A stretch of DNA of 62,283 nt. It comes from Vicinamibacteria bacterium. Lineage in GTDB: Bacteria > Acidobacteriota > Vicinamibacteria > Vicinamibacterales > JAMQPK01. Both the position numbers and the translations under genes were made by a program. Each line of letters begins with the position of its first letter. Positions within the stretch are counted from its first letter, which is position 1. Under the pieces are notes generated by a model that did no database searches, was not told where the DNA came from, and saw only the letters and a list, made by a program, of their open reading frames with translations. The stretch spans positions 1 through 62,283 of the forward strand of contig JANMJM010000070.1 in assembly GCA_031371345.1 (NCBI GenBank), in the 5' to 3' direction. Below are positions 15,387 to 50,153 of this stretch, in pieces.

Positions 15387-15389
15387 TCG

Positions 15390-26153: not shown

Positions 26154-26230
26154 CGGATTCACCTCGTAAGCAGCCTTTCCGGGTGGGACGTATTCAAGTA
26201 ACATCCCATTCTATTCACAGGGACATTTCC

Positions 26231-28451
26231 ATGCTGAAAAAGCTCCTTCCTGCTCTCGCCCTTTCCCTGTTCGTCGCGGTGCCGTCAGCGGCCCAGGGAC
26301 CTCGACAAAGTCGCGCTCGGAGACTGGCCCGAAGCGAGGGGACCGAATCGCGACGGCACCTCGCTCGAAACCGGTCTTCCCGATTCATGGGATCTGAAAG
26401 GCACTCTGCTGTGGCGGGCGCCGTACGGAGGCCGATCGGCGCCCATCGTCATGGGCAATCGCGTATACGTGCAGAACCCGTCGGGCAGGGGCGCGGCATT
26501 GCAGGAACGCGTGATGGCGCTCGACACCGAATCAGGCAAAGTTGTCTGGGAATACAAGTTCAATATTTTTCAGAGCGACGTGCCGCCTCACCGCGTGGGA
26601 TGGGCGTCGCCGGCGGCCGATCCTGAAACCGGCAATATTTACGCGCTTGGCGTCGGCGCGACGCTCGTCGCTCTGAGCCGTGACGGCAAGCTGCTCTGGG
26701 ACCGATCGATTGGTGAAGAATACGCGGCGTTCACCACTCACGGCGGCAGGACGATGTCTCCGCTCGTCGACGGCGATCTGGTGATTGTCAGCGCGGCGGT
26801 GTCGAATTGGGGCACGCAGGCCGCGCGATCGCATCGCTTCATCGCTCTCAACAAGCGGACGGGCCAGATCGTTTACGTCGCCAATCCCGGCGGCCGCCCG
26901 TACGACACCGCGTACGCGTCCCCAACGATCGCTACCATCAACGGCACCCGGCTTCTCCTCTGCGGGCTCGGAGACGGCGCGGTTCACGCCATCAAACCGC
27001 AGACCGGTGAAAAAGTCTGGAGTTACGTCATCTCCAAGCGGGCCATCAACACCGGCGTCGTGGTGAGCGGCAGTACTGTGATCGTGTCGCACGGCGATGA
27101 GAACCTCGACACCAACCAGATGGGCATGATCGCGGCAATCGACGGATCACAGACCGGCGAGATCAAAACCACGAAGTGGGCGGTCAAGGGCGATCAGTTC
27201 GGTTTCTCCTCGCCGCTTACCGACGGCACTCGCGTTTATCAAATTGAAAATGGATCGCGGCTGAAAGCGTACGACCTCGCGACCGGGCGCGAGCTCTGGA
27301 CGCAGGCCCTCGGCACGGTGCAGAAAGCGCCGCCGGTCCTCGCCGACGGAAAAATTTTCGTCGGTACCGAAAGCGGCAAGTTCTTCATCGTGAGGCCGCA
27401 TGCCGACCGCGCAGAGGTGCTCAGCGAAGTGCAATTGCCTCTCAGCACGAACAGCGTCGGTGGATCTGAAGGCACACCCGAACAGGTGCTTGCGGGCGTC
27501 GCCATTTCTCGGGGCCGGGTGTTTTTCGTCTCGAGCGATGCTGTCTATGCATTTGGCCCAAAGCAGCGAAAGACGTTGACGGGATTCGCCGCCAACGAGC
27601 CGGCTGTCAGCGGTGAGGGCGCACCGGCGTATGTGCAGGTGACGCCAACCGAACTCGTCTTGACACCGGGGCAGACGGTGAAGCTCACTGCGCGTACGTT
27701 CGACAATCGAGGCCGTTTTCTCCGCGAAGAAAAAGCCACGTGGGCGCTCGATGGGTTGAAGGGCACGGTCACAGACGGCGCACTCACTGTGAGCAGCGAT
27801 CCAGGCGAACAAGCCGGCCTTATCAAGGCGAGCGTCGCGGGATTAACCGGCGAAGCGAGAGCTCGTGTCGTTCGGCCGATGCCGTGGAACGAAACGTTCG
27901 AGTCGTTCCCCGACGGCACTGCACCGCCCGGATGGGTGAATACCACGGCCGGCCAATTGACGATCGCCACGCTCGACGGCCAGAAAGTTCTGCAGAAGGC
28001 GCCGATGAACACGATCTTCAAGCGCATTCGCGCGTTCATCGGGCCGGTCGAGTGGTCCAACTACACCTTCGAAGCCGACGTGCGAGCCGCCACGAGGCGG
28101 CGGATGATGGGCGACGTCGGCATCACGGCCCAACGCTACAGCCTGGTACTGTACGGCACGACTCAACGTCTGAAGCTCGAGCCGTGGGAACCGGAAACGG
28201 CACGATCGGTCGCGCTGCCCTTCGCGTGGAAACCCGACACGTGGTACCACTTGAAGCTGCGCGTCGAGACCCTCCCGAACGGGAGCGTGCGCGCGCGCGG
28301 AAAGGCGTGGCCCACTGGAGAGCCGGAGCCGGCGGCGTGGCTCATCGATAAGACCGATCCGATCGGCAACAAGCAAGGTGCGCCGGGGTTTTTCATCGAT
28401 GCCGAGTTTGGGGCGTTTCTCGACAACTTGAAGATTTCACAGAATCAGTAA
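26231..28451 (+). CDS. Secreted PQQ-like beta-propeller protein with C-terminal LamG/DUF1080-like jelly-roll domain; apparent +1 frame disruption near 26296
   Basis: The signal peptide MLKKLLPALALSLFVAVPSAAQ (ATG 26231) is in one frame. The mature part DLDKVALGDWPEARGPNRDGTSLETGLPDSW...MGNRVYV... continues in the frame of the 26451..28451 ORF, which has no ATG/GTG/TTG before 26451. The C-terminus WSNYTFEADVRA...WYHLKLRVE...GFFIDAEFGAFLDNLKI is concanavalin-like. Confidence 0.7.
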
Positions 28452-28454
28452 TTT

Positions 28455-29891
28455 ATGAACAACACACGCACCCTCGTCGCCGCGGCCATTCTGATTCTGG
28501 CCACCGCGAGCGTTTCACGACTGACCGCTTCGGATCCGAACACCGGCGACTGGCCCATGTGGGGCGGCACTCCCGATCGCAACATGGTCTCGGCAATGAA
28601 GGGGCTCCCTATCGATTGGGATATCAAGACGAAGAAAAATGTGAAATGGGTCGCCGATCTCGGGTCGCAGTCCTACGGCAATCCGGTCGTGGCCGGCGGC
28701 ATGGTGTTCGTCGGGACGAACAACGAAGGGATGCGCGATCCGAAACAGCCCGGCGATCGCGGCGTGCTCATGGCGTTCCGCGAGTCCACCGGCGAATTCA
28801 TGTGGCAGCAGACGCATATCAAGCTGGAGTCGGGCCGCGCCAACGATTGGCCCTATCAAGGCGTGGCCTCTTCCCCGGCCGTGGAAGGCACTCATCTCTA
28901 TTACGTCAGCAACCGCGGCGTCCTCTTCTGCCTCGACATCGAGGGCTTCCGCGACGGTGAAAACGACGGCCCGGTTAAGGATGAAAAACTCACGAGCCCT
29001 CAGGACGCCGACGTCATCTGGTCGTTCGACATGATGGAAGAAGTCGGCACGTATCCGCACAACCTGGCGAATTCGTCGCCTGTCGTCTGGGGCGATCTGG
29101 TGTTTGTGAGCACCTCGAACGGACAGGACGAAAGCCACGTGAACATTCCTTCGCCGCGCGCGCCGGCGATTATTGCGGTGAACAAACAGACGGGCAAGCT
29201 CGTGTGGGAAGACAACTCGGTCGACGATCGCATTCTGCACGGCCAGTGGTCCACGCCTTCCGTGGGAACCATAGGCGGCGTGCTGCAAGTGGTGTCGGCG
29301 CAGGGCGACGGCCAAGTGCGCGGCTATGAAGCGCTCACAGGCAAAAAGCTCTGGGAGTTCGACACGAACCCGAAGGACGCCGTGTGGCCGAAAACGCGCA
29401 ACGAGCTGATCGCGACACCAGTCATCTATCAGGATCGTGTGTACATCGCCAACGGGCAAGATCCGGAGCATGGCGAAGGAACTGGGCACTTCTACGCGAT
29501 CGATGCGACCAAGCGCGGCGACATTACGCAGACGGGACGCGTGTGGCACTTCGACAAGCTACGCCGATCGATCTCAACGGCGGCCGTGCTCGACGGCGTC
29601 GTCTACATTTCCGATTTCAGCGGCTTCCTGTACTGCCTCGACGCCGCCAGCGGCAAGGAAATCTGGATGCACGATCTCTTCGCAGCCACATGGGGCTCGC
29701 CCTTCGTAGCCGATGGAAAGCTTTACATCGGTGACGAAGACGGCGACGTGACTGTGCTCGCGCACAGCAAGGAAAAGAAAGTCCTGGCCGAGATGAACAT
29801 GGGCAGCTCGGTGTACTCCACACCGGCGCCTGCGCACGGCGTCCTGTTTCTGAATAACCGCAACCAGCTTTACGCATTGGCGATCAAGTGA
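28455..29891 (+). CDS. Secreted PQQ-like/BamB-like beta-propeller repeat protein
   Basis: Signal MNNTRTLVAAAILILATASV and GDWPMWGGTPDRN, with repeated GxxxALDxxTGKxxW-type blades (e.g. GYEALTGKKLWEF, CLDAASGKEIWMH). It starts 3 nt after the previous stop. Confidence 0.85.
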   Translation: MNNTRTLVAAAILILATASVSRLTASDPNTGDWPMWGGTPDRNMVSAMKGLPIDWDIKTKKNVKWVADLGSQSYGNPVVAGGMVFVGTNNEGMRDPKQPGDRGVLMAFRESTGEFMWQQTHIKLESGRANDWPYQGVASSPAVEGTHLYYVSNRGVLFCLDIEGFRDGENDGPVKDEKLTSPQDADVIWSFDMMEEVGTYPHNLANSSPVVWGDLVFVSTSNGQDESHVNIPSPRAPAIIAVNKQTGKLVWEDNSVDDRILHGQWSTPSVGTIGGVLQVVSAQGDGQVRGYEALTGKKLWEFDTNPKDAVWPKTRNELIATPVIYQDRVYIANGQDPEHGEGTGHFYAIDATKRGDITQTGRVWHFDKLRRSISTAAVLDGVVYISDFSGFLYCLDAASGKEIWMHDLFAATWGSPFVADGKLYIGDEDGDVTVLAHSKEKKVLAEMNMGSSVYSTPAPAHGVLFLNNRNQLYALAIK

Positions 29892-29899
29892 GGAAACGT

Positions 29900-30349
29900 A
29901 TGGGATGGATCGTGTTCGTGGCCGGCGCCGTGTTGTCCTGGGGCGCCTACGGCATGCTGCTGCACCAGGGTCAGGTTCTGCTCGGCAATCCGCTGAAAGC
30001 GCTGCTATGCGTCGGCGTCGCGTACTTTCTCATCGGCGTGCTCGTGCCTGTTGCGACGCTTGCGGTGCAAGGCCAGTTGGGCGGATTCGATACACGGGGT
30101 TTATTGACGGCCACCATCGCGGGCGCGCTCGGCGCCATCGGCGCCGCGTGCATCATTTGGGCGTTTCGCACCGGAGGCTTGCCGGTGTATGTGATGCCGC
30201 TGGTGTTTGGCGGTGCGCCGATCGTGAACGTGCTGCTGTCGATGGTTCTGCATCCGCCGAGAGTCGCGCCGAATCCTCTTCTGTATCTCGGCTTTGTGCT
30301 CACGTCGGTGGGCGCGGGGATGGTGCTGTACTTCAGGCCTGCCGCGTAA
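29900..30349 (+). CDS. Hypothetical small 4-5 TM membrane protein
   Basis: GAGGAA lies 4 nt upstream of the ATG at 29900 (an alternative GTG at 29888 overlaps the upstream stop). The sequence is highly hydrophobic. Confidence 0.6.
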   Translation: MGWIVFVAGAVLSWGAYGMLLHQGQVLLGNPLKALLCVGVAYFLIGVLVPVATLAVQGQLGGFDTRGLLTATIAGALGAIGAACIIWAFRTGGLPVYVMPLVFGGAPIVNVLLSMVLHPPRVAPNPLLYLGFVLTSVGAGMVLYFRPAA

Positions 30350-30393
30350 TCGCGCATTGGAGCTTTCATGAATGCAGGACCGATTTACATTTT

Positions 30394-31527
30394 TCAATCT
30401 CGTGCGTACTTCCTCAGATTGTTGAAGCCGACATCCGCCGCATAGACGTTCCCCCGATCGTCGACCGCGATGCCGGACGCCGACGTGCCCGTGTCCGGCA
30501 TCTTGCTCAGATCGCCCGGATCTGGAATGAGGTATTTGAGCTCGCCTGTGATCGCGTTGCCGATCACGATCGCTCTGTCGTTCGGGGTTGTCGACGATCG
30601 GTTGACAGATCCGCGAGACTGATCCTGATAAGTGGCCCCAACGTAGATGTTGTCGTTCTTGTCGACATACACGGAGCTCGGCTGCCCGAACTGTCTCCAC
30701 GCGGCGATGAAATTGCCGTCCTGATCGAACACCTGGATGCGATTGTTCTGGCGATCGGCAACATACACGTAGCCTTTGGAGCCGCCGACGTACAGGTCGT
30801 GTGGATCCCTGAAGTTTCCCTGCTCCGGCCCCATGCGTCCCCAGGTTTTGATGAACTTGCCGTCGGACGAATACTTCACGACGCGACCGCTCCCTGATCG
30901 GTTGCCGGAATGGCCATCGGTGACAAAGATATTTCCGTTGGGCGCAATGGAAACGCCTGTCGGCTGATCGAAGGTGTTCGGCCCAATCCCGCCGACGCCC
31001 GCCGAGCCAATCGTCATCATTACTTTGCCGGTCGGGCTGATCTTGAGAACCTGCTGACCCATCGTCACGCCCTGACCATTCTTCGCAGGCATGCCGAGGA
31101 TCGTTTCCTCGTCATTGGTGTCGGTTGCCCAGAGGTTGCCGTCCTTGTCGACGGTAAATCCGTGCGGCTTCGCAAACAGTCCAGCGCCAAGGCTCTTCAA
31201 TAGCCTGCCTGCCGGATCGAACTCCAGGATCGGCGGGTTGGCCTCACCTCGGTTCAGGCAGGTGGCGTCGCCGTTCGGCTGGTCGTTGAAACAGCGGTGA
31301 AACACCCAGATGTTGCCATTTGGCGCGACATGGACTCTGATGACCTCTCCCCATTTGCGTCCATTCGGACCCTTCATCCTGGCGGGCAGCCTCGGCCAGT
31401 CGGGCACAGGGCGATACGGATTTGGCAGCATCGGTTTGGCGACCTGCGCATCGTTGGGCACCTGAGCATTCGCGATTGCTGCAAGGGAAAAGAGGGCAAC
31501 GACGGGGACAAAAAAATTCATCGTCAT
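30394..31527 (-). CDS. Secreted NHL-repeat six-bladed beta-propeller (peptidyl-alpha-hydroxyglycine lyase-like)
   Basis: Signal MTMNFFVPVVALFSLAAIANA. Recurring NHL-type blades PHGFTVDKDGNLWATD, PTGVSIAPNGNIFVTD, PHDLYVGGSKGYVYVADRQNNRIQVF, SGIAVDDRGNVYAAD. Confidence 0.75.
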   Translation of the reverse strand: MTMNFFVPVVALFSLAAIANAQVPNDAQVAKPMLPNPYRPVPDWPRLPARMKGPNGRKWGEVIRVHVAPNGNIWVFHRCFNDQPNGDATCLNRGEANPPILEFDPAGRLLKSLGAGLFAKPHGFTVDKDGNLWATDTNDEETILGMPAKNGQGVTMGQQVLKISPTGKVMMTIGSAGVGGIGPNTFDQPTGVSIAPNGNIFVTDGHSGNRSGSGRVVKYSSDGKFIKTWGRMGPEQGNFRDPHDLYVGGSKGYVYVADRQNNRIQVFDQDGNFIAAWRQFGQPSSVYVDKNDNIYVGATYQDQSRGSVNRSSTTPNDRAIVIGNAITGELKYLIPDPGDLSKMPDTGTSASGIAVDDRGNVYAADVGFNNLRKYARD

Positions 31528-31617
31528 ATTTTTTGGTAAACCCCTGGCGTTTCGCGCTTCTGACCGGGTTTATTTAGGCAGACGTGCCTTGCGAAGAATG
31601 GACCCTTAAAAGACGCT

Positions 31618-32889
31618 TCAATGTCTATTCCCCACGGCCCATAGCCAACCCGCGGTTCTGATGAATATCTGGCCATCCGAGATCGCCGGTGAGCTGAGCG
31701 TGTAGTCGTCGAAATTATTCTCGGCGAGCACCTCGAACTTCGGCCCGGCCCGCACCACAATCGTTACGCCGTCTTCATTCGTGATGTAGAGCTTGCCGTC
31801 GCCGAGCGCGAACGATCCGCTGTAGGTGCTCGAGCGGAGGCGCTGCCGGCCGTAAATTTCCTTTCCAGTCTTCGCGTCGAGGCACCACATGATGCCGCGG
31901 TCATTGACAACGTAGAGATACGTGCCGTCGGTGACCGGGGTTGGGACATCGGGTCCGTTGTTGAACGACCACAACAGGTGAGACGAGGTGATATCGCCGC
32001 GTCCGCCGGCCCTCAACGCCAGCATCGGCCGCTCGCGGCTTGGCGCATAGATGATGTCGCCGTGCACGAAGGGGGACGCGACAATCCGGTATGAGCCGTC
32101 GTTCGAAGGATTCAGCCCGTTGGCGCGCCAGAGTTCTTTACCCGTCGAGAGATCGTGGCCAGTCACAACGTCGCCGCCTGTAATGACCAACTCGGTAGCG
32201 TTCCCGTAGCGGAGCAACGCGGGCGTCGTATACGAGTCCGGTGATTCAGACTGCGCGCTTGTCGGCCGCTCCACGCGCCAAATCGTGCGTCCGTTCGCCT
32301 TGCTGATGCGCAGCACATAGGACGGCGCGTCGGTTCTCATCCCGTGCAGGACCTGCACGTATAGCGAGTCCTCGTGCAGCAGTGGAGACGAACCATAGCC
32401 CCAGTTCAATCCGAAACGGCCGTAATCTTTCTGAATGTCGCGCGTCCAGAGTTCCTTGCCAGTGAAGTCGAAGCTTTTAAGGATGCCGGTTCCCGTCATC
32501 ACCCACACCTGGTTGCCGTCGGTGACTGGCGACGGAGACGACATGTTCTGCTTCTGCTCGCGGTGATCGCCGCCGCTCAGGTACTGCTTCCACAGGGGAA
32601 CGCCTTTGACGCGTTCTATACACCAGAGATGCAGGCTGCCCTTCTCGGCCACGTTCAGGAAAATACGATCACCCCACACGATGGGTGTCGAACCCGACCA
32701 TTCGGGAAGCGCAAGCTTCCAGGCGATGTTCTCGGTCGCCGACCATTTGACGGGCAGATTCGTTTCGCCACTGACACCGTTCTGCGTGGGTCCGCGCCAC
32801 TGCGGCCAGTTCTCCGCGCGCACGACACTGAGCATGGCGCAGAGCGCCATGACAATCGCCAGCGGCGTGTAAGTGTGACTGCGTGACAT
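31618..32889 (-). CDS. Secreted PQQ-like/BamB-like beta-propeller repeat protein
   Basis: Signal ...[44 protein letters not shown], and C-terminal [11 protein letters not shown]...[14 protein letters not shown]. Confidence 0.85.
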
Positions 32890-32892
32890 TTA

Positions 32893-32927
32893 CCCTTTGC
32901 CCCTTACCCCTTGCCCCTTACCCCTTT
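32893..32927 (-). repeat. 5 x 7-bp tandem repeat forming a canonical G-quadruplex motif on the mRNA-sense strand
   Basis: The plus strand reads CCCTTTG CCCCTTA CCCCTTG CCCCTTA CCCCTTT. The minus strand reads AAAGGGG TAAGGGG CAAGGGG TAAGGGG CAAAGGG TAA ATG. It occupies essentially the whole 38-nt spacer between the stop at 32928 and the start at 32889. Confidence 0.9.
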
Positions 32928-34235
<1,308 letters not shown>

Positions 34236-34246
34236 GGTGGAGTGGG

Positions 34247-35572
34247 TTATTTTGCGCCGATGCTGTAAAGGTACCGATATCCGCGCATGTAAATCTCGCC
34301 ATCGACCAGTGCCGGCGATGCGTCGAAGCCGTCGTCCAGCACGTTCTTCGCCAGCACCTCGAATTTCGGGGCGTTGCGGATCACCAGGGTCGTACCCTCG
34401 CGTCCTGTGACATACACCCGCCCGGCCGCGCCAACCGGCGACGAGAAGACCTCGGAGAGACCATCGAGGCGTTGAAGCTGATAGTGCGGCGTGCCGGTTT
34501 TGGCGTCGAACGCCGACAAAATATTGTTGTTCGTCTTCAGGAAATACAGGATGCCGTCGTATAGCACCGGCGACGGCACGTATGGCGTATCGCGATCAAG
34601 CGACCACACAATCGCGCCGGAATGGGAGATGTCGCCCTTGGCATCGGCCAGCCGAACCGCTTTCAAGTTGTTGCCGCGGAAACCGCTCATCGCATAGATC
34701 ATCCCGTCGGCACCCACCGGCGAGGGAATCGGATTCATCGTGAGCCCCTGGCTGTGCCAGACCACCTCTCCGTTCTCCAGATCGTAACTGATCAACTTGT
34801 TCATCCCTGGCACGATTACCTGCGCGCGGCCCGCGTGCTCGACGATGAGAGGCGTGGCCCATGTGTCGATCTCGTCGCGCTTCACTCGCCACAGCTCATT
34901 GCCGGTTCGCTTGTCGAGGGCGACGATGTAGGAGCCCGCGGTGTGATCCCAGACGACGACCAATCGATTGCCGTGCAGTGCCGGCGTAGTGCCTTCGCCG
35001 AACTGATTGCGCATCGCCTTGTCGCCAAGATCCTTTTCCCAGACGAGCTTGCCGTCCATGTCGTACGCGAAAATTCCGCGCGACTCGAAGAACGCGATGA
35101 CGTGCTGCCCGTCGGTCACGGCCGAGCTCGATGCCCATGTACCGTTGTCTGCATGCGAGGCTTCATGAGGCGCCTGCTCGCGCGCGGTCCGCTCCCACGC
35201 GATGCGGCCGTCGCGACGATCGATCGCCATCAGGACGAATCGATGCACCGCTCTCGGTGAGATGCCTCCCCGCGGCGTGTGAGATTCGGCGCCCTTCGCA
35301 TCTGCGGGAACGGCCGTCAAGATGTAAAGCCGATCGCCCCATACGACGGGCGATGATGATCCCCGGCCGGGAATCTCGATCTTCCAGCGGATATTCTTCG
35401 TCTCGCTCCACTCGACCGGCGGGTTCGCGTGCCGCGAAATGCCATTGGCTTCCGGGCCGCGCCACCGCGGCCAATAGCTCGCGCCGTCCAGCGGGCTCGG
35501 CGCCTGCGCGACGGACGTCATCATCAGGGGCACGGTGACAAGAGCAGCGGTAAGGGCTGCGGTTATGCGCAT
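34247..35572 (-). CDS. Secreted PQQ-like/BamB-like beta-propeller repeat protein
   Basis: Signal MRITAALTAALVTVPLMMTSVAQA, SYWPRWRGPEANG, GSSSPVVWGDRLYIL, and C-terminal PKFEVLAKNVL...ASPALVDGEIYMRG. Confidence 0.85.
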   Translation of the reverse strand: MRITAALTAALVTVPLMMTSVAQAPSPLDGASYWPRWRGPEANGISRHANPPVEWSETKNIRWKIEIPGRGSSSPVVWGDRLYILTAVPADAKGAESHTPRGGISPRAVHRFVLMAIDRRDGRIAWERTAREQAPHEASHADNGTWASSSAVTDGQHVIAFFESRGIFAYDMDGKLVWEKDLGDKAMRNQFGEGTTPALHGNRLVVVWDHTAGSYIVALDKRTGNELWRVKRDEIDTWATPLIVEHAGRAQVIVPGMNKLISYDLENGEVVWHSQGLTMNPIPSPVGADGMIYAMSGFRGNNLKAVRLADAKGDISHSGAIVWSLDRDTPYVPSPVLYDGILYFLKTNNNILSAFDAKTGTPHYQLQRLDGLSEVFSSPVGAAGRVYVTGREGTTLVIRNAPKFEVLAKNVLDDGFDASPALVDGEIYMRGYRYLYSIGAK

Positions 35573-35783
35573 AACTCGCTAATTATTACTGCCGATTGGA
35601 TCTGCGAGTTTACCAGACGCCTTTTCGATCCATTGTCCCCTGTTTACCGGAGGCGCTGTCGCCGCACCTATGGCGTATATGGCTCGCGATCGACGCGAAG
35701 AGCGGACAGCGCGTGTGGCAGGAGCGCACGGGAGACGTGCCGTGTACGCGATAGGGAAATAGGGAACGGCCGAGGTGCCACAC

Positions 35784-37058
35784 TTATCGGCCGATGGCGA
35801 AGAGGTGTCGATCCGATCGAATGTACCAGTTGCCATCGACGAGCGCCGGAGACGCCAGCGTCGACTCACCGATGCTGTTGGTTCGCAGCAGCTCGAACTT
35901 CGGGCCGGCGCGCAACACAAACGTGTCGCCCTCGTCGTTGGTGAAAAACACTTTGCCGTCGACGGCAACGGGCGACGCGGAGAACCCTTCGCGCTGGGCC
36001 ACCCCGAGCCGCCCCTGCCACATCACTTTCCCCGTGGCGACTTCCATGCACGTGACGATGCTTGCCATGTCGTTCACCATATAGAGATAGTCGCCGTAGA
36101 CAATGGGCGACGGCACAAACGGCGATCCCTTCGGGCTCGCCCACGCGAGATGCGTGCGCGTGACGTTACCCCGTCCACCGGGACGAATCGCCAGCGTCGG
36201 GCCGACGCGACCTGATGACGCGATGACGAGTCCGTGAGAAACCACAGGAGTCGGGATCACCTCGTATGAATTGCCGTCGCACCGCCATAGTTCGGCGCCG
36301 GTGTCCGGATGATACGCCGTGACGGCCGCCTGGCTGCTGACGATGATTTCATCGTGTGTGCCAACGCGCACAGCGATCGGCGTTCCCCATCCGGCGTAGG
36401 CCTCGCGTGGTGTGCGCCAGAGTTGTTTACCGCTTCGCGCGTCGAACGCCGCCACGAAGGCGCCACGACCATGATCCTGAAAAATAATCACGCGGTTCTT
36501 GTACAGCAGCGGCGACCCTGCGGCGCCGTGATAGTTGTCGACCGGTCCGAGGTCCTGATGCCAGGCCAGCTTGCCGTCGAATGTGAACGCCACGAGTCCT
36601 CGACTGCCGAAGGAAACATAAATCAGGCTGCCGTCAGTGGCGGGAGTCGGAGAGGCATGGCCGTTCTTGTAATGAGCGCCGGACGTCCGCCCATCTGGCG
36701 CGAACGCCTCCCACAACTGTGTGCCGTCGCCGCGACGGAACGACAGCAGCGAGACGCGACGCCCGCCGTCGTAAGCCGTTGTGAGAAAAATTCTGTCGCC
36801 CCACACAATCGGCGATGAATTGCCACGCCCGGGAACTGTCGTTTTCCAGAGCACGCCGTCTGTCGCCGACCACGTGTCGCGGTAGTTGGTGCCTTCGACG
36901 AGACCTTGTCCCGACGGACCGCGCCACACAGGCCAGTACTTCGCCCCTTCTCCTTCTATGCCGACCATCTGCACGTCGGCTTGTTGCTGCCCGACAATCG
37001 AGGCACCGGCAAGAGCGAGAAACAGCGCGATCGCGATCGGCAGGCGCATATTGCTCAC
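35784..37058 (-). CDS. Secreted PQQ-like/BamB-like beta-propeller repeat protein
   Basis: Signal [47 protein letters not shown], and PKFELLRTNSI...ASPALVDGNWYIRS. The GTG at 37058 overlaps the upstream stop (GTGA). An alternative ATG lies at 37049. Confidence 0.85.
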   Translation of the reverse strand: MSNMRLPIAIALFLALAGASIVGQQQADVQMVGIEGEGAKYWPVWRGPSGQGLVEGTNYRDTWSATDGVLWKTTVPGRGNSSPIVWGDRIFLTTAYDGGRRVSLLSFRRGDGTQLWEAFAPDGRTSGAHYKNGHASPTPATDGSLIYVSFGSRGLVAFTFDGKLAWHQDLGPVDNYHGAAGSPLLYKNRVIIFQDHGRGAFVAAFDARSGKQLWRTPREAYAGWGTPIAVRVGTHDEIIVSSQAAVTAYHPDTGAELWRCDGNSYEVIPTPVVSHGLVIASSGRVGPTLAIRPGGRGNVTRTHLAWASPKGSPFVPSPIVYGDYLYMVNDMASIVTCMEVATGKVMWQGRLGVAQREGFSASPVAVDGKVFFTNDEGDTFVLRAGPKFELLRTNSIGESTLASPALVDGNWYIRSDRHLFAIGR

Positions 37059-38344
37059 GCAATCACAAACCGTCTGGCCTTCATGTCGAACCGCGGAAGC
37101 ACGCCGGCGTCGACGGTGCGTACGGCGACGGTCAGGCCAAGCCCGTCGCGCAGGGCGCCACTGATGCGTTCGTCAAGCGACGCTGATCCTGGCGCCAGCT
37201 CGATCTCAAGTGACAGCTCGCGTAAGGCGCCGTTGTTCACGACGGTTGCGCGATACTCGACGACCTCATCAAAACGGCGGACCACCGCCTCGACAGCCGA
37301 AGGGTACACATTGACGCCGCGAACGTTCACCATATCGTCGACGCGCGACAGGATTCCGCCCTCGAGACGCGTCAGCGTGCGGCCGCAGGCACACAGCCCG
37401 CTGCGTCGGACGACCACATCGCCCGTGCGGTACCGAATCAACGGGCTCGCGGTTCGTCCGAGATTGGTAATCACCAGCTCGCCGCGCACGCCGTCGGGCA
37501 CCTCGCGATCGGCAGCCGGCTCGAGCACCTCGCAGATGTACTCGCACTCGTTCACGTGCAAGTAACCTGGTGACTCCCAGCACTCAAAACTGATTGGTCC
37601 GACCTCGGTGAGCCCGTGATGATCGATCACCCGCGCTCCCCATGCCTTTTCGATTCGCGCCCGCGTTGGCGGAACGTTCCCACCAGGTTCCCCGGCGACG
37701 ATCAGGACACCGACCGAACACTCGGCCAGACGTCTTCCAGACTCGCCGCGCTGCGCCGCGACTTCGGCCAACCGCAGGGCATAGGTCGGCGTGCAGCAGA
37801 CGACCGTTGGCGCCAACGAATCGATCAACGCCAGCCGCGCCTCGCTCGACATGCCGCCGGCCGGGATGCAGTGCGCGTCGATCTGGCAGCCGGCTTCGAA
37901 CGCCGTCCAAAATCCAAGAAACGGACCGAACGAAAAGGGGAACAGGATGCGGTCACGCGCGCCGACATTGGCCGCGCGGTAGACAGCCTTCCAGCAGTCC
38001 ACCATCCACTGCCAGCTTTCGTTCGTGTCGAGCCATCGCAGTGCGCTCCCGGTGGTTGACGACGTTTGGTTGTACCGGGTGTAACGCTCGATCGGCTCGG
38101 TGAGCGCGGTGCCCCACGGCGGCGACGATGCCTGATCGGCGATCAGCTCGCGCTTGGTCGTCAGCGGAAGCTTCGTAAAATCGACCTGCGGATTGAAGGC
38201 GTCACGCCGGATGCCTGCGGCCTCCAGCTTGCGGGTGTAGAACGCGTTCCGGCCGTGAATCTGCCGAATCATTTGCGACAGACGCGTCATCTGAGCGGCG
38301 GTGCGCGCGGCCGGATCGGCGCGCTCGAGGTCCGTGGCGATCAT
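37055..38344 (-). CDS. Phenylacetate-CoA ligase (PaaK)-family adenylate-forming enzyme
   Basis: PaaK-like N-terminus (RNAFYTRKLEAAGI...LPLTTKRELI), P-loop-like YNQTSSTTGSALRW and VITNLGRTASPLIRYRTGDVV. The 429-aa length is typical of the PaaK/F390-synthetase family. Confidence 0.8.
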   Translation of the reverse strand: MIATDLERADPAARTAAQMTRLSQMIRQIHGRNAFYTRKLEAAGIRRDAFNPQVDFTKLPLTTKRELIADQASSPPWGTALTEPIERYTRYNQTSSTTGSALRWLDTNESWQWMVDCWKAVYRAANVGARDRILFPFSFGPFLGFWTAFEAGCQIDAHCIPAGGMSSEARLALIDSLAPTVVCCTPTYALRLAEVAAQRGESGRRLAECSVGVLIVAGEPGGNVPPTRARIEKAWGARVIDHHGLTEVGPISFECWESPGYLHVNECEYICEVLEPAADREVPDGVRGELVITNLGRTASPLIRYRTGDVVVRRSGLCACGRTLTRLEGGILSRVDDMVNVRGVNVYPSAVEAVVRRFDEVVEYRATVVNNGALRELSLEIELAPGSASLDERISGALRDGLGLTVAVRTVDAGVLPRFDMKARRFVIA

Positions 38345-38347
38345 TTA

Positions 38348-38761
38348 TTAGACGCCCGGTGCCACCTGGAACAGCGCATCGATCTCGGGTGGGATGTCTG
38401 CTCCGCGCATCGGCTCGCCCGGACGGTTCGTGACGCACTTCACGACGAGCGTACCTGTCGCGATTCGCGTCTCTCCGCTGGTAATGACGCCCTCGTATCG
38501 GATCGTGCGGGCGTCCTTCCCGACAACTCGCAGGCGCACCTCGAACTCGTCGTCAAACTTCAACGGCCGGAGATATTCGAACGATGCCGCAATGCGAGGC
38601 CAGCCGATTCCCGAACCGTCGGCGATGCGCAGTCCGGCCTCGCGCCACATCGCGTGTTCGGCCTCTTCCAGGTACCGGAAGTAGCAGCTGAAATGCACGA
38701 TGCCCGCCATGTCGGTTTCGTAGAACTGCACGCGGCGCTTCAAGCGGTGTTCGAAAGGCAT
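38348..38761 (-). CDS. 4HBT/YbgC-type hotdog-fold acyl-CoA thioesterase
   Basis: RVQFYETDMAGIVHFSCYFRYLEEAEHAMWREAGL (catalytic Asp context of the 4-hydroxybenzoyl-CoA thioesterase/YbgC family); 137 aa. Confidence 0.8.
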   Translation of the reverse strand: MPFEHRLKRRVQFYETDMAGIVHFSCYFRYLEEAEHAMWREAGLRIADGSGIGWPRIAASFEYLRPLKFDDEFEVRLRVVGKDARTIRYEGVITSGETRIATGTLVVKCVTNRPGEPMRGADIPPEIDALFQVAPGV

Positions 38762-38765
38762 AAGC

Positions 38766-39311
38766 TCAGACGAGCGGAAGCACCTCGACGATGTCGCCGA
38801 TCCTGGCGCCCTCGTGAATCATCTCAGTCCGCCGGCCATAGAGCGTCCGCGGTTCGCGCATCCAGAAGACGCCCATCATCTCGGGATTCGGCGTGACCGC
38901 GAGAAACGCGATGGGCCGGCTTTCGTACTTCACACCGCCGTCGCGGAGCAACCGTCCGAGCGGCACATCGTTCTTCAAGATCTGGCGGCGGATGCGATCG
39001 GAGAACGCGCCGACTTTGATTCTGATGGCGCCCATCTCGACCGGCCGCCCGGTGTATTCCTGAGCCAGCAGCACGCGCCGAAAGTACCACGGGCCGCTCG
39101 TAAACGTCGCCAACGGCCGCAGCGCGACTTTCCCGCCGAAATGCCGCTCGAGCGTCAACGTCATATCGGTCGTATGCACGAGCAGGGAACGATACGGAAG
39201 CGGGATGTCGGCTGGGTCAACCGCCGCGACGTCTGGCAGCGCCACGCCGGACCGCGCGTAAACGAAGTCGAGCGGAAACAGCAGCCCGTTGCTCGAGGCT
39301 CGAGGACGCAC
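38766..39311 (-). CDS. Chorismate lyase (UbiC/DUF98)-fold protein
   Basis: It aligns by eye to E. coli UbiC landmarks. LLVHTTDMTLTLERHFG matches LLLEDSMTKRFEQQG. WYFRRVLL...GRPVEMGAIRI matches YWLREILL...GEPWLAGRTVV. VPLGRLL matches TPLGRYL. LYGRRTEM...IVEVLP matches LWGRRSRL...LTELFLP. Confidence 0.6.
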   Translation of the reverse strand: MRPRASSNGLLFPLDFVYARSGVALPDVAAVDPADIPLPYRSLLVHTTDMTLTLERHFGGKVALRPLATFTSGPWYFRRVLLAQEYTGRPVEMGAIRIKVGAFSDRIRRQILKNDVPLGRLLRDGGVKYESRPIAFLAVTPNPEMMGVFWMREPRTLYGRRTEMIHEGARIGDIVEVLPLV

Positions 39312-40643
39312 TTATGTGTACCGGATGCCGGCGTGCTGCGCCTGAAAAAATCTCGGCAGTAGTGCATCGACGCGCAGCAAACCCGCGCGAGTAAGCGCGA
39401 CGATGTCGTTGCTCGCCTCGGCGAGGTACCCGCCTTCGGCAAGCGACGCCAGCGGCTGTTCGAACCGTTGGAGGATATCGACGCCGTATTTCGTCGCGAA
39501 GTACGGCGGGCGGATCCGGCCGAGCTTCAACTGCAGCACCAGCTCACGAATGAGCCGTTCTTCCGAGTCGGGCCGGTACGCGCGGCTCAACGGAAGCGCA
39601 CCTTCCCTGATTTTTGCGCTGTACTTTTCCCACGTGTCCAGATTCTGCATGTGCACGCCGTTGATGTGTCCGAACGAGGCCACGCCGAGCCCCGCGAGGT
39701 CTGCGCCCTGCCATAAACGATCGCGGTAGATGAACTTTGTGCGATCCGGATCTTTGACGGCCGTGTACGCGCTGCCCACGGTGTAGCCGGCGCGCTGCAG
39801 CGCGTCGAACGCTTCGTCGACCCAGCGGCGCTTGGTCGACCAGCCGGCGACGTGTTCCTGGAAGCGCCCCGCACCTTTCAATACGTCACCGCTGATGGTC
39901 GTGTTGAACGGCAGCTCCATCTGATAGATCGTGACGCTGTCGGCTCCGAGCTCGACCGTCTTCTGAATGCAGCGCTGCCAGTTCTCTTCCGTTTCTCCCA
40001 GCATGCCCGCGATGAGATCGAGGTTGATCTGCGGAAATTTCAGCGATTGCGCAAACTGGTACGCGCGGAGAATCTCGGCTGAACGATGTGCACGGCCGTT
40101 GAGCTCGAGAATATGGTCGTCGAAGTTTTCGATGCCGAGGCTCAGCCGCGTCACGCCGAGTCCTCGGATCGCGGCCAGCTTACTCTCCGTGAGCGTGCCT
40201 GGCTCGCACTCGAACGTGATCTCTTCGGCGGTCTTCCAGGAGGTCGTGGCCGTGAGCCGGTGAACCAGCCGCTCGAGCTGACGAACAGAAAGAAATGACG
40301 GCGTGCCGCCGCCGAAGTACACGAAATTCAGCGGACGCCCGTTGATCGCGGGATACGTGTTGTAGAGCTCCCATTCGCGCGCCATGACGTCGAGATACGC
40401 TTCGACCTCCTGCGCGTTCTTGTCGGTGTACACCCGGAAGTAGCAAAAGTGGCAACGCTTGCGGCAGAACGGCACGTGCAGATACAGGCCGAGAGGCACG
40501 GCCGCGGCCAGCGCGCTTAACGCGGGCAGCGCGTCGCGCTCGACAGCGTCGGCGGTCCAGACGGAGAATGGCGGATAGTTGGCAACGAAGTAGCTGCCGA
40601 CTTCCGTCTCATCGACCGCCGTCGCGCGAGCGGATTCGACCAT
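39312..40643 (-). CDS. HemN-like (class C) radical SAM enzyme / coproporphyrinogen-III oxidase family
   Basis: CX3CX2C cluster motif LHVPFCRKRCHFCYF and GGGTPSFL. The 443-aa length with a HemN_C-like tail fits the family. Its stop abuts the next gene start with a 0-nt gap. Confidence 0.85.
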   Translation of the reverse strand: MVESARATAVDETEVGSYFVANYPPFSVWTADAVERDALPALSALAAAVPLGLYLHVPFCRKRCHFCYFRVYTDKNAQEVEAYLDVMAREWELYNTYPAINGRPLNFVYFGGGTPSFLSVRQLERLVHRLTATTSWKTAEEITFECEPGTLTESKLAAIRGLGVTRLSLGIENFDDHILELNGRAHRSAEILRAYQFAQSLKFPQINLDLIAGMLGETEENWQRCIQKTVELGADSVTIYQMELPFNTTISGDVLKGAGRFQEHVAGWSTKRRWVDEAFDALQRAGYTVGSAYTAVKDPDRTKFIYRDRLWQGADLAGLGVASFGHINGVHMQNLDTWEKYSAKIREGALPLSRAYRPDSEERLIRELVLQLKLGRIRPPYFATKYGVDILQRFEQPLASLAEGGYLAEASNDIVALTRAGLLRVDALLPRFFQAQHAGIRYT

Positions 40644-40677
40644 CGCACGTAATATACCTTAGGGAGCCACAACACTC
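40644..40677. promoter_or_regulatory. 34-bp divergent intergenic region with a TAATAT/ATATTA -10-like element
   Basis: cgcacgTAATATaccttAGGGAGccacaacactc. TAATAT is at 40650..40655. AGGGAG at 40661..40666 serves the plus-strand propeller gene. On the minus strand TATATT ends 7 nt from the radical SAM ATG, so that transcript could be leaderless. Confidence 0.3.
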
Positions 40678-41955
40678 ATGTCACCCAGGCAATTCTGCAT
40701 CTCAGCTCTCGCTGGTCTGTGCCTGAATCTCACCACTTTGCCGGAGGCGTCGGCGCAGAACTGGCCGCAGTTTCGGGGGCCGGGCAGCCAGGGGATCTCG
40801 GTCGAGACCGGCCTGCCCGTGCAGTGGAGCGCCACGTCGAATGTGATCTGGAAGACAACGCTCCCTGGACCAGGCCATTCCTCGCCAATCGTGTGGGGCG
40901 ATCGGATCTTTCTCACCGCGTTTCGTTCCGAGCGCATGTCGAACGCGTACGCGGCGCGCTATCTATTATCGGCTCGCGGGCAGCTTGTGGTACTCGCGCT
41001 CGACAAATCTTCTGGAAAAATTCTGTGGGAACGCGCCGTCAAGGCTTCGAGCATCGAAGCGCTCCATCCGACAAACAGCCCGGCCTCGCCAACGCCAGTG
41101 ACCGACGGTCGTTACGTGTATGTGTATTTCGGATCGGCCGGACTCGTGGCGTTCGACTTCAACGGAACGGTCGTGTGGGAAAAACGGCTGGGCCCGTTCC
41201 CCAGCGATTGGGGCAGCGCCAGCTCGCCCGTGCTCTACGGCAGCACCTTATTGTTGAACGTCGACACTGATGGAGATGACTTTCTGCTGGCGGTCGACAA
41301 AACCACCGGCACGACGATCTGGCAGACGCCCCGCGGCCATGTGACCCGATCGTGGTCGACGCCGATCATCTGGAACGCGAACGGCCGCGACGAGATCGTC
41401 GTCAGTGGAAGCCAGCGCGTGAAAGGATACGACCCGGTCGGCGGAAAAGAGCTCTGGACCGTTGACGGCCTCACCGAATGGGTCGCGCCAACCCCAGTCA
41501 CGGCGCACGGTTTGTTGTTTGTGGCATCGAACGGCCCCGGCGGGAACATCATCATGGCCATTCGCCCGGGCGGCAGCGGCAATGTCACGCGCAGTCACGT
41601 CGCGTGGCGGTACGAGCGTGGTGCGCCCTACACGCCATCGCCAGTGGTTGTCGGCGATTATTTATTCGCCGTGAGAAGCGGCGGCCTGCTCACATGTCTG
41701 AACGCGAAGACAGGCGTCGAGGTGTGGCAGCATCGTCTGCCGGCGCGCGGCGACTATTACGCCAGCCTGCTCGCGGGCGACGGAAAGATTTACGCGCTCA
41801 GCGAGGATGGCGAGACCACGGTGATCGCCGCCAAGCCGGTGTACCAGCTGTTGAGCGTGAACGACATGGCCGAGCGGTCGATGGCCACTCCGGCAGTGTC
41901 TGGTGGACGACTTTTCATCCGCACCGACAGCGCACTGTACTCAATAGGAAAGTAG
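40678..41955 (+). CDS. Secreted PQQ-like/BamB-like beta-propeller repeat protein
   Basis: Signal ...[46 protein letters not shown], and C-terminal PVYQLLSVNDM...ATPAVSGGRLFIRT. Confidence 0.85.
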   Translation: MSPRQFCISALAGLCLNLTTLPEASAQNWPQFRGPGSQGISVETGLPVQWSATSNVIWKTTLPGPGHSSPIVWGDRIFLTAFRSERMSNAYAARYLLSARGQLVVLALDKSSGKILWERAVKASSIEALHPTNSPASPTPVTDGRYVYVYFGSAGLVAFDFNGTVVWEKRLGPFPSDWGSASSPVLYGSTLLLNVDTDGDDFLLAVDKTTGTTIWQTPRGHVTRSWSTPIIWNANGRDEIVVSGSQRVKGYDPVGGKELWTVDGLTEWVAPTPVTAHGLLFVASNGPGGNIIMAIRPGGSGNVTRSHVAWRYERGAPYTPSPVVVGDYLFAVRSGGLLTCLNAKTGVEVWQHRLPARGDYYASLLAGDGKIYALSEDGETTVIAAKPVYQLLSVNDMAERSMATPAVSGGRLFIRTDSALYSIGK

Positions 41956-42053
41956 AACGAGGGAGCGCGGCACATAAGGCCGGCCAAGCGGCCGTGTTCG
42001 TGCACCGTCAGTTCCGGCCGCGGGACGGCCTTTATGGTGACATGTTCCCTCGT
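41956..42053. terminator. Extended GC-rich imperfect palindrome between convergent genes
   Basis: The outer stem ACGAGGGA (41957..) pairs with TCCCTCGT (..42053). Inner CACATAAGGCCG pairs with CGGCCTTTATGGTG, and there is a central GGCCaagcGGCC. Confidence 0.4.
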
Positions 42054-42055
42054 CT

Positions 42056-43297
42056 TCAGTTCAGCGTCCAGAGTGCGAGCGTGTCGATGTCGCGCACGAA
42101 GATGCGGTTGCCAGAAATCGCGGGCGCCGGCCACGTCGCGCTGTCGGCGACCGTGTAAGTCTTAAGCGGCTCGAATCCGCCTGGCGTGCTGCGCGCCACC
42201 ATCAACTGGGCGTCATCCTTCAGCACGAACAGTAGATTTCCGGACCGCACGATGGCCGCGTTGCCAGCCTGGCGCGGCGGCGACATCCACAGCGTCTTCC
42301 CGGACTTCGCATCGGCCCAGAAAAACTGCCCGCTGTTGAGCGGCGACAACGAGAACACCGCGTCGCCAACGAGCACCGGATTGCTGAACGACATCTGCAC
42401 TTCCGGATTTTCCCACGCCACGTCGGCCACCCATTTGTTGTCACGCTTTGCAATCGTGTAGGCGGTCAGCGGCTTGCCTTGCCCCGACACGATCAACGTC
42501 CGCCCCTGATACAGGAGCGGCGTAATCGAGTTGGTGGTCGATCGCGCCTCGAACGGCATGCTCCAGAGCAGCTGGCCAGTGGCCGCATCGACCCCAACCA
42601 GGTTCTTCTGCGAGAACGTGATCACCTGCCGCGTGCCATCGACGTCGATGATGATTGGCGAGCCATACCCGGGACCGTCGCCCTTCCAGCTCCATTTCTC
42701 GGCGCCGGTCGCGGGATCGAACGCCGTCAGGGCACCGTCGTTGTTGCCTCCGACATGAATGATCATCAAGCCGCGATCGACAATCGGCGACTGGGCCGTG
42801 TGGAACGTCTGCGGAACCACAGGCTTTGGCTTCTGCCACAACTGTTTGCCCGTCGCGGCGTCAAAAGCCGTGACGATGCCGCTCATGCCCATGGTGAAGA
42901 TTCTGCCGTCGGCAAACGCCGGCGTGGATTTTGGCCCAGGGCCATGGCGCGAGGTTGAGTTATTCATCATGAACGGCGCGGCATACGGCGATTCCCATAT
43001 GACTTTGCCGCTGGCAGGATCGATCGCGCGCAACACTTCATTCTCGTTCTGTCGCGAGAACACATACACACGGTTCCCGACCACAAGTGGCGTCGCGTAC
43101 CCAGTACCGACGGGAATCTTCCATCGCTGGGTCAGCGCGTCGGGCCAGCTCTTCGGCTCGGTGAACGACGTCAGCACGCCATCTCTACTAGGACCACGCC
43201 ACTGCGGCCAGTCCGGTCCAGCATTCTGTCCCGTTGCCACAGCCGACAAAGCGGCGAAAAGGACGATCCCGACAAACGAAGTACGTCGCAGTCTCAT
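42056..43297 (-). CDS. Secreted PQQ-like/BamB-like beta-propeller repeat protein
   Basis: Signal MRLRRTSFVGIVLFAALSAVATG and PDWPQWRGPSRDG, with blades AIDPASGKVIWES, AFDAATGKQLWQK, AFDPATGAEKWSW and GVDAATGQLLWSM. Confidence 0.85.
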   Translation of the reverse strand: MRLRRTSFVGIVLFAALSAVATGQNAGPDWPQWRGPSRDGVLTSFTEPKSWPDALTQRWKIPVGTGYATPLVVGNRVYVFSRQNENEVLRAIDPASGKVIWESPYAAPFMMNNSTSRHGPGPKSTPAFADGRIFTMGMSGIVTAFDAATGKQLWQKPKPVVPQTFHTAQSPIVDRGLMIIHVGGNNDGALTAFDPATGAEKWSWKGDGPGYGSPIIIDVDGTRQVITFSQKNLVGVDAATGQLLWSMPFEARSTTNSITPLLYQGRTLIVSGQGKPLTAYTIAKRDNKWVADVAWENPEVQMSFSNPVLVGDAVFSLSPLNSGQFFWADAKSGKTLWMSPPRQAGNAAIVRSGNLLFVLKDDAQLMVARSTPGGFEPLKTYTVADSATWPAPAISGNRIFVRDIDTLALWTLN

Positions 43298-50068: not shown

Positions 50069-50153
50069 GGTTGTTAGTTGTTGGTTGTTGGTTCTGCCGC
50101 TTGTCCTTCGCGTGTTTGGTCTCGTCGTTCGAACTAACAACTAACAACTAATA
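50069..50153. repeat. Inverted pair of heptamer tandem repeats forming an intercistronic hairpin
   Basis: GGTTGTTA GTTGTTG GTTGTTG GTTCTG (50069..50096), a ~34-nt loop, then GAACTAAC AACTAAC AACTAAT (50131..50153). The second arm contains the TAG stop at 50148..50150. No Shine-Dalgarno motif is visible before the ATG at 50068. Confidence 0.8.

Follow-up and report, generated by a model that had tools for sequence, protein, structure and literature searches.

Why would one stretch of an acidobacterial genome encode eight exported beta-propellers of the same kind, and what might they do there? The stretch in question (the window) comprises all 62,283 nucleotides (nt) from position 1 of contig JANMJM010000070.1, which belongs to a Vicinamibacteria bacterium (assembly GCA_031371345.1). 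Its base composition is 62% G+C throughout, and the closest relatives of its proteins come from metagenome-assembled Vicinamibacterales, phylum Acidobacteriota. An earlier note on this DNA had reported eight propeller genes, here named P1 to P8, and had ascribed to them a common N-terminal WPxWRGP motif, a four-gene subfamily and local duplication. We found that the eight form one homologous set of old, differentiated propeller types and that several of these types recur together in other acidobacterial classes. Most likely, we infer, they serve an envelope pathway as binding or scaffold components in the periplasm.

All eight open reading frames (ORFs) were present at or near the positions claimed for them, and each scored 91-148 bits on PF13360 (PQQ_2), whose gathering score is 27.6 bits. 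Exactly eight ORFs of the window exceeded this threshold, all of them within 26.2-56 kb. Searched with a profile built from the eight proteins, the 411 six-frame ORFs of the window with 80 amino acids (aa) or more gave no ninth member, which confines the island to 26-56 kb. The profile searches thus bear out the view of the eight as one homologous set of exported PQQ_2/BamB-like propellers, and the NHL-type propeller said to lie among them was also recovered by its Pfam match (Table 1). P1 reaches 717 aa solely through a C-terminal extension, for whose ~340 aa no Pfam, NCBIfam or PDB match was found; the other propellers measure 385-478 aa. The signal peptide of P1 (MLKKLLPALALSLFVAVPSAAQ, with its ATG at 26231) is out of frame with the body that bears GDWPEARGP (frame 26298), with a one-base shift at about 26290-26300, within the run GCCCAGGGACC. 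An ortholog in another genome (L067) is intact in a single reading frame. The shift is either an assembly error or the mark of a pseudogene.

We used all-against-all BLASTP to establish the kinship of the eight. P3-P6 were mutually 32-42% identical (E 1e-63 to 1e-103; P6 with P5, 42%), whereas nearly all other pairs were 22-29% identical, the exception being a 72-residue P5-P8 segment at 36%. The proposed four-gene subfamily was thereby confirmed. In the motifs said to define it, P3 has STPIVWGDR rather than the SSP form and P6 has PVYQLL rather than PKFE[VL]L. Local duplication did not survive as a recent event. The paralogs are 23-42% identical, a DNA repeat search found no duplicated segments between the propeller genes, and the longest repeat, shared by the conserved C-terminal blocks of P3 and P5, spans 78 nt with 77% identity. 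This low identity and the absence of long DNA repeats indicate old paralogs and not recent local duplicates. P1, P2 and P8 were far nearer to genes in other Acidobacteriota classes than to each other. By these alignments, the set is made up of at least five old, differentiated types: P1, P2, P7, P8 and the P3-P6 subfamily.

Fold was modelled for P5 and P2. AlphaFold2 predicted eight four-stranded blades for both, with a predicted local distance difference test score (pLDDT) of 88.6 and a predicted template modelling score (pTM) of 0.88 for P5, and 79.2 and 0.82 for P2, which supplies the blade count that the earlier note had wanted from structure prediction. In Foldseek searches of the PDB, the top matches of P5 were the designed Cake8 propeller, BamB and tetrathionate hydrolase, while BamB came top for P2, with a target-normalised template modelling (TM) score of up to ~0.8. 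The E-values of both models to Cake8 and BamB ranged from 1e-17 to 1e-22, and PedH was found in the lists only at rank 44-48. The profile matches and the models together identify the eight as predicted exported PQQ_2/BamB-like propellers, modelled as eight-bladed in P5 and P2, with BamB as the closest known structure.

The curated family models gave a different answer on family membership. None of the eight reached the cut-off of either BamB model (TIGR03300, 48.9-152.3 bits against 285; NF008351, 35-112 bits against 423), the best score being the 152 bits of P8 on the former. Assignment to TIGR03075, the alcohol dehydrogenases that use pyrroloquinoline quinone (PQQ), takes at least 480 bits and a length of ~570-600 aa; the eight scored 19-92 bits. 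They scored at most 70.8 bits, against a cut-off of 650, on TIGR04528, the 'acido-empty-quinoprotein group A'. This is a curated family of PQQ-enzyme-like paralogs with a name tied to Acidobacteria and a model of 493 positions, from which the window propellers differ as a smaller, separate branch. A vicinal Cys-Cys disulfide is the active-site landmark of methanol and ethanol dehydrogenases. No 'CC' is present in any of the eight propellers, and in the alignment of P7 with 7o6z the CC of 7o6z faces non-Cys residues. The earlier statement that the propellers are too small for PQQ quinoprotein dehydrogenases and lack their landmarks is in agreement with these scores, lengths and missing cysteines. 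Curated cut-offs therefore support the view that the eight are neither PQQ dehydrogenases nor BamB.

In all eight proteins, K/R near the N-terminus is followed by a hydrophobic stretch (10-aa Kyte-Doolittle mean of 2.2-3.2 in a hydropathy check), and these N-termini look like typical Sec signal peptides. In P2-P8, 7-24 residues separate that stretch from the motif (P1 was left out on account of its frameshift). An eight-way alignment gave it the form W-P-x-[WFA]-[RG]-G, with W, P and G invariant, and the regular expression, run over the window, found the eight propellers and one antisense chance match. The succession of signal peptide and motif thus holds for all eight as claimed, except that in P1 the signal peptide lies in another frame than the body.

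The motif is not a feature of the island. When PDB sequences were searched with phmmer, 'DWPQWRGPSRDG' of P7 was aligned with 'NWPILRGNYQG', the N-terminus of the PQQ-dependent alcohol dehydrogenase 7wmd, and likewise with 'GDWPSYGRD' of ADH-IIG 22vi. The eight-protein profile aligns to PQQ dehydrogenases starting at their first 10-30 residues. When 1.84 billion 50%-identity representatives were scanned with this profile, 173,582 proteins passed E<=1e-3 and 19,538 passed E<=1e-30. All 35 single-domain cluster representatives sampled at 50% identity carried the motif or a close variant (e.g. EWPMWGGT), and its strict regular expression matched 118 of the 164 propeller ORFs in related loci. WPxWRGP is thus an N-terminal element of the whole superfamily, probably a feature of the fold, and not a sorting signal of the island. 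It sits ~20-27 residues ahead of an N-terminal strand; in the P5 model, strand 66-71 (VLWKTT) stands before blade 1. By analogy with BamB and the PQQ enzymes, the strand after the motif would close the last blade.

To find related loci, we scanned a genome collection with the P3-P6 alignment. The scan returned at least 600 matching stretches; 590 of the 600 listed encode relatives, from Acidobacteriota, Planctomycetota and Verrucomicrobiales. The six-frame ORFs of 80 loci (L numbers) were labelled by the window proteins. Two long Vicinamibacterales contigs with P5 orthologs (L004, L005) hold the same gene set in another order, and the same members in varied orders were seen in the gene maps of these two and of L007, L067, L035-L047, L053, L074 and L076. 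Six loci from Pyrinomonadaceae/Blastocatellia (L035, L038, L041, L042, L044 and L047) each encode P8, an iron-containing alcohol dehydrogenase (Fe-ADH), P2, P1 and a P7-like gene, together with two to four P5/P6-like genes, an ankyrin-repeat protein (Pfam-checked only in L041) and an outer-membrane barrel. Radical S-adenosylmethionine (SAM) and halogenase-like enzymes were found in four of the six (L038, L041, L044, L047), and an ORF of the size of an Na+/H+ exchanger in three (L038, L041, L044; Pfam-checked only in L041).

Within Vicinamibacterales-type genomes, P3, P4, P5 and P7 have orthologs of 66-77% identity: P3 of 66-73% in L005, L007 and L067, there right after the FtsX gene; P4 of 76% in L004; and P7 of 71%, also in L004 and after FtsX. 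P1 stands directly upstream of P2 in approximately eleven fetched loci that show both. Directly after the FtsX permease gene comes a propeller gene, both in the window and in six of seven evaluable loci. A block encoding a family 4 glycosyltransferase (GT4), an aldehyde-dehydrogenase-family protein and an AMP-binding-like protein was also present in L005, L067, L076, L053 and L142, while the NHL propeller was found inconsistently. Several propeller types share one neighbourhood in at least three classes (Vicinamibacteria, Blastocatellia/Pyrinomonadaceae and Bryobacterales/gp2). It is a recurrent neighbourhood, in which membership recurs, order and orientation differ by lineage, and the P1-P2 pair is constant.

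Ahead of many P5 orthologs lies a rhodanese domain of ~95 aa (L004 9672-10001; proteins P0001, P0016, P0021 and P0045). The domain is either fused in frame before the signal-peptide-like helix or encoded by a separate gene that overlaps the start codon. In such a fusion, a single membrane-anchored chain would bear a sulfurtransferase in the cytoplasm and a propeller in the periplasm.

Clustering was judged against 51 loci of at least 20 kb in other genomes, each centred on a relative. We found one propeller in 28 of them, two in 13 and three to eight in 10. All ten loci with at least three propellers bear marker enzymes or the P8-P2-P1 module, and the other 32 kb of the window hold zero further members. 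These counts make the dense islands a discrete, recurring entity. The earlier note had left the meaning of the local clustering conditional; since the same types recur together across classes, and dense loci always come with marker genes or P8-P2-P1, we regard it as meaningful. Shuffled order, constant membership and dense recurring islands together argue for selection on proximity.

The neighbouring genes of the window are listed in Table 1. P1, P2 (after a gap of 3 nt) and the 153-aa membrane protein form a plus-strand unit. The minus-strand operon is ordered radical SAM, 181-aa protein, thioesterase, PaaK-like enzyme, P5, P4, halogenase-like enzyme, P3 and NHL propeller, with gaps of 0-91 nt except between P5 and P4; P5 begins 5 nt past the PaaK-like stop. 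A second minus-strand run encodes the AMP-binding-like protein, the aldehyde dehydrogenase, GT4, the ATPase of an ATP-binding cassette (ABC) transporter, its FtsX permease and P7, which begins 13 nt downstream of the permease gene. The first three of these genes make up a block spanning 47358-51650. A 'LuxC/LuxE-like' label for the aldehyde dehydrogenase and AMP-binding-like genes was dropped, as they matched no LuxC or LuxE model. The earlier note had overlooked both this placing of the propellers in operons with enzymes and an ABC exporter and the frameshift of P1.

Table 1. Propellers (upper rows) and neighbouring genes in the window, with identities of their counterparts in related loci
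Feature	Position	Strand	Family matches and remarks	Identity in related loci	Where found
P1	26231/26298-28451	+	PQQ_2 100 bits; propeller ~370 aa plus C-terminal extension ~340 aa	46-71%	all related loci
P2	28455-29891	+	PQQ_2 105 bits; most conserved propeller of the set	68-80%	all related loci
P3	31618-32889	-	PQQ_2 91 bits; P3-P6 subfamily	31-43% (P3-P6), one-to-one match lacking	Pyrinomonadaceae and other non-Vicinamibacterales loci
P4	34247-35572	-	PQQ_2 91 bits; P3-P6 subfamily	as P3	as P3
P5	35784-37049	-	PQQ_2 100 bits; P3-P6 subfamily	as P3	as P3
P6	40678-41955	+	PQQ_2 105 bits; P3-P6 subfamily; divergent from minus-strand operon	as P3	as P3
P7	42056-43297	-	PQQ_2 127 bits	43-44%	L041 and L044
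P8	54840-55937	-	PF13570 205 bits, PQQ_2 148 bits; minimal, regular eight-repeat propeller	52-64%	all related loci; beside Fe-ADH, P2 and P1 in Pyrinomonadaceae
Outer-membrane beta-barrel with CarboxypepD_reg N-domain (TonB-dependent-receptor-like)	23109-26204	-	PF25183 690 bits, PF13620 64 bits; abuts P1	52-62%	propeller loci of Pyrinomonadaceae, gp2, Bryobacteraceae
Small multi-pass membrane protein, 153 aa	29888-30349	+	start overlaps P2 stop	70-85%	inside related propeller loci, position varies
Exported NHL-repeat propeller	30394-31527	-	PF01436 88.7 bits; last in minus-strand operon		
Flavin-dependent halogenase-like enzyme (flavin adenine dinucleotide)	32928-34235	-	PF04820 106 bits	48-49%	Pyrinomonadaceae loci
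PaaK-like aryl-acid adenylating enzyme/coenzyme A ligase	37055-38344	-	PF00501, PF14535; PaaK models 198-212 bits, below cut-off		
4HBT hot-dog thioesterase	38348-38761	-	PF13279 54 bits		
181-aa protein	38766-39311	-	named chorismate-pyruvate lyase by the Joint Genome Institute in many relatives		
HemN-like (class C) radical SAM enzyme	39312-40643	-	PF04055 76 bits, HemN_C; first in minus-strand operon	51-53%	Pyrinomonadaceae loci; adjoins halogenase-like gene there
Duplicated FtsX/MacB-type permease, 1125 aa	43311-46688	-	PF02687 twice, PF12704 (MacB periplasmic core)	52-66% (with ATPase)	related loci
ABC ATPase of that permease	46696-47364	-	PF00005; LolD, MacB and DevA-type ATPase matches	52-66% (with permease)	related loci
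GT4 glycosyltransferase	47358-48821	-			
Aldehyde-dehydrogenase-family protein	48641-50140	-			
Weak AMP-binding-like protein	50148-about 51260	-			
Fe-ADH	55925-57070	-	PF00465, PF25137; end overlapped by P8, translationally coupled	58-62%	Pyrinomonadaceae loci, beside P8

Several of these neighbours could be characterised further. The best PDB matches of the halogenase-like enzyme were 8zop (229 bits) and then CndH, PltA and CmlS; it scored 212 bits on the CmlS model (cut-off 900), and had sub-threshold matches to QhpG (134 bits) and LodB (100 bits). Landmarks of flavin-dependent halogenases are GxGxxG, a WxWxIP motif and a catalytic Lys; in eight orthologs GGGPAGS, GWFWYIP and K71 are invariant, and by halogenase numbering K71 may correspond to that Lys. 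By these matches, the flavoenzyme is nearer to the halogenases than to QhpG or LodB. The radical SAM enzyme reached 155-175 bits on the HutW, HemN and HemW models, below their cut-offs, and its PDB matches were HemN and the methyltransferase NocN. The halogenase-like enzyme and its HemN/NocN-like partner recur as a pair in several Acidobacteriota classes, and look like a conserved small-molecule tailoring pair. For the 181-aa protein, which has more than 1000 relatives, no Pfam, NCBIfam or PDB sequence match was found, and the 153-aa membrane protein had no family in Pfam or NCBIfam searches. The FtsX/MacB-type permease matched the acidobacterial ADOP family weakly, at 38 bits (cut-off 622). 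A scan of the window for promoter-like sites gave only the chance level (4 found, 4.0 expected), and the only plausible signal of the promoter and terminator scan was a terminator-like hairpin past P6 (42016-42030).

We next asked whether the presence of the enzymes predicts that of propellers, using the reverse test of 80 metagenome loci centred on relatives of the halogenase-like gene. A propeller was present in four of the seven loci that also bear the radical SAM gene, and several short contigs are broken off within a propeller. The link seen in this direction was partial, and the claim of an obligatory link was lowered on that account: the halogenase/radical SAM pair is a module that associates with the propellers in certain lineages without being an obligatory partner.

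The neighbourhood allows a role to be proposed. Co-conserved with the propellers across related loci, as judged by ORF matches, are the duplicated FtsX/MacB exporter, the halogenase/radical SAM pair, Fe-ADH, the small membrane protein and the outer-membrane barrel. The cytoplasmic enzymes would produce or modify a small molecule, aromatic or lipid-like, by means of a chorismate-lyase-like protein, an aryl-acid adenylase, a thioesterase, the halogenase-like and radical SAM enzymes, a glycosyltransferase and an aldehyde-dehydrogenase-family protein. The MacB-type pump would handle that molecule, and the propellers would serve as periplasmic modules that bind ligands or partners, with some propellers possibly catalytic. 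MacB/FtsX-type pumps use dedicated periplasmic partners, as is established for MacAB, LolCDE and FtsEX, and the propeller encoded after the permease would be the candidate periplasmic partner of the pump. Like MacB/LolCDE-type ABC systems, the window combines an ATPase, an FtsX-family permease with a large periplasmic domain and a periplasmic protein encoded directly downstream. Unlike them, it has an internally duplicated permease of 1125 aa, and the candidate partner is a propeller rather than MacA, LolA or EnvC. We put the probability that these are periplasmic propellers of an envelope export or processing pathway at about 0.55, most of the weight being carried by the descriptive part of that statement.

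A number of observations weigh against this assignment. The conservation of P2 exceeds that of the neighbouring cytoplasmic enzymes; this is above what would be expected of a scaffold and would suit an enzyme, and because of it P2 may be catalytic. In the reverse test, 34 loci were 9 kb or longer and only 7 of these had a propeller, and the link between enzymes and propellers may be inherited synteny in some lineages. The UbiC-like and PaaK-like genes were missing from the Pyrinomonadaceae loci. The density background is conditional and cross-genome, its loci having been preselected for a member, and differs in this from a genome-wide density. The motif region was modelled with a pLDDT of ~86 in P5 and of only 35-45 in P2. 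Finally, our search of the literature on PQQ-like propellers of Acidobacteria and Planctomycetes found no paper on the locus, and no characterised ortholog or experiment that assigns it a function.

A catalytic variant would have the propellers serve as 'empty' quinoprotein-like enzymes, supplied with a cofactor of the island's own making. By one route, the flavoenzyme and the radical SAM enzyme would form a protein-derived quinone on a conserved Trp before export, for which QhpG and QhpD of quinohemoprotein amine dehydrogenase maturation offer a parallel. By another, a chorismate-derived aromatic would be made by the UbiC-like and PaaK-like proteins, the thioesterase, the halogenase and the radical SAM enzyme, and be delivered by the ABC exporter. 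Co-location, the weak QhpG and LodB matches and the mature N-terminus of P2, SDPG(T/S)GDWPMWGGTPDRNM, which is almost invariant across classes, are the whole of its support, and we hold this variant to be very unlikely. If it is true, soil Acidobacteriota would have a new class of redox enzymes in their periplasm, and a very abundant one.

Could the propellers instead be known enzymes? As periplasmic dehydrogenases with PQQ or a related soluble quinone, they would make the island an oxidation system and be supplied with cofactor or substrate by the barrel, and Fe-ADH would act like ErcA, an alcohol-dehydrogenase-like protein that regulates PQQ ethanol oxidation in Pseudomonas. ErcA is indeed the best NCBIfam match of Fe-ADH, but at 258 bits it stays under half the cut-off of 550, with lactaldehyde reductase close behind at 223 bits. 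Like methanol dehydrogenases and other PQQ alcohol dehydrogenases (TIGR03075; 7wmd, 22vi, 7o6z), the window proteins are exported propellers, homologous from the very N-terminus with its [DN]WPx[YWL][GR]G; PF01011 reaches its gathering score in six of the eight, P2 is conserved like an enzyme and the barrel is co-conserved. However, they are 150-200 residues shorter, fall far below the TIGR03075 cut-off, lack the vicinal cysteines and have modelled folds nearest to BamB and designed minimal propellers rather than to PedH, and no pqq genes are present in the window. Taken together, this makes PQQ dehydrogenases an unlikely identity. We hold it to be less likely still that they are sulfur-compound enzymes working with rhodanese and akin to tetrathionate hydrolase of Acidithiobacillus ferrooxidans, a cofactor-less member of the PQQ-like propeller family with Asp325 as its catalytic residue. 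The structures 6l8a and 7cqy of this enzyme were the only PDB sequence matches of P5 (E ~5e-9), the enzyme is also among its top folds (TM 0.65-0.70), and rhodanese precedes many P5 orthologs in frame or overlaps them. Yet the match to 6l8a (E 5.8e-9) covers only residues 314-412, some 100 C-terminal residues of generic repeats. The hosts are neutrophilic soil bacteria, the window has neither a rhodanese nor a sulfur-oxidation context, and a fused rhodanese would stay in the cytoplasm, across the membrane from the propeller, because it is placed before the signal-peptide-like helix.

Two further explanations do without a new pathway. The clustering might be a by-product of a hugely expanded family, brought about by chance or tandem duplication and with no shared function. 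The size of the family gives this some appeal: it numbers 173,582 clusters in the scan described above, all 8000 scored metagenome candidates for P2 were at E<=1e-20 (the best 120 being at least 79% identical), and relatives elsewhere are mostly singletons in unrelated contexts. Against it stand the distinct types that recur together across classes in shuffled order, the constant P1-P2 adjacency, the succession of FtsX and propeller in seven of eight cases, and the lack both of recent duplication and of further members in the remaining 32 kb. Synteny largely refutes a by-product, which we regard as improbable. The other explanation, that P8 or P2 is the acidobacterial BamB of outer-membrane protein assembly and the rest are diverged copies, is the least probable of all. 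BamB (YfgL) is a periplasmic lipoprotein and non-catalytic scaffold of the beta-barrel assembly machinery (BAM) complex; it shares with the window propellers an eight-bladed PQQ_2-type fold and a similar size, and is their best structural match (TM ~0.6-0.8), and P8, the best scorer on its model, alone among the eight has a Cys at a lipobox-like position. This Cys is missing in the P8 orthologs, so that a lipoprotein BamB was rejected for P8, and P2 and P7 have no such Cys. The window propellers thus differ from BamB in not being lipoproteins, in scoring below both cut-offs, in the WPxWRGP element, in their many differentiated paralogs and in a gene context of Fe-ADH and other enzymes with no bam genes.

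We therefore return to periplasmic propellers of an envelope pathway as the preferred reading, and to what is new in it. The domain family is known and very large; the conserved multi-type island and its partners are new. P2-like proteins are extremely common in metagenomes, yet sources name the relatives generically as 'PQQ-binding-like beta-propeller repeat protein' or 'BamB', and 'BamB' and 'PQQ-binding' labels on such genes are unsupported. A 2026 preprint on lanthanide PQQ enzymes was considered and set aside, since it concerns six-bladed proteins like soluble glucose dehydrogenase, different from the window propellers. Vicinamibacterales and Pyrinomonadaceae have been recovered chiefly as soil metagenome genomes, from which most of their biology is inferred. 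For these bacteria, the fixed propeller types, the MacB-type exporter and the halogenase/radical SAM pair offer a testable unit for an uncharacterised periplasmic system. The island is a lead into an abundant system of soil Acidobacteriota and no discovery of its mechanism.

Some minor observations concern single loci. In L041, Pfam places the ankyrin-repeat protein and the Na+/H+ exchanger inside the island, at 7399-8292 and 15153-16604, and ORFs of matching size and placement are found in other Pyrinomonadaceae loci; in L004, an exchanger lies inside the operon (7235-8335), where the window has none. Propellers of 41-62% identity were also found in L012, L016, L043 and L057, metagenome-assembled genomes with titles naming Cyanobacteriota, Acidimicrobiia or Heliobacteriaceae. 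The label of L043 is doubtful because its propeller arrangement matches that of the Pyrinomonadaceae loci, and is probably a binning error. In the window, the P5-P4 gap (35573-35783, 211 nt) is the sole sizeable non-coding gap of the minus-strand operon. A sodium:solute symporter ORF (51491-53119) and a major facilitator superfamily (MFS) ORF (52528-54480) overlap by ~590 nt on one strand; the GTG start of the latter was probably called too far upstream, as its Pfam match starts at residue 243.

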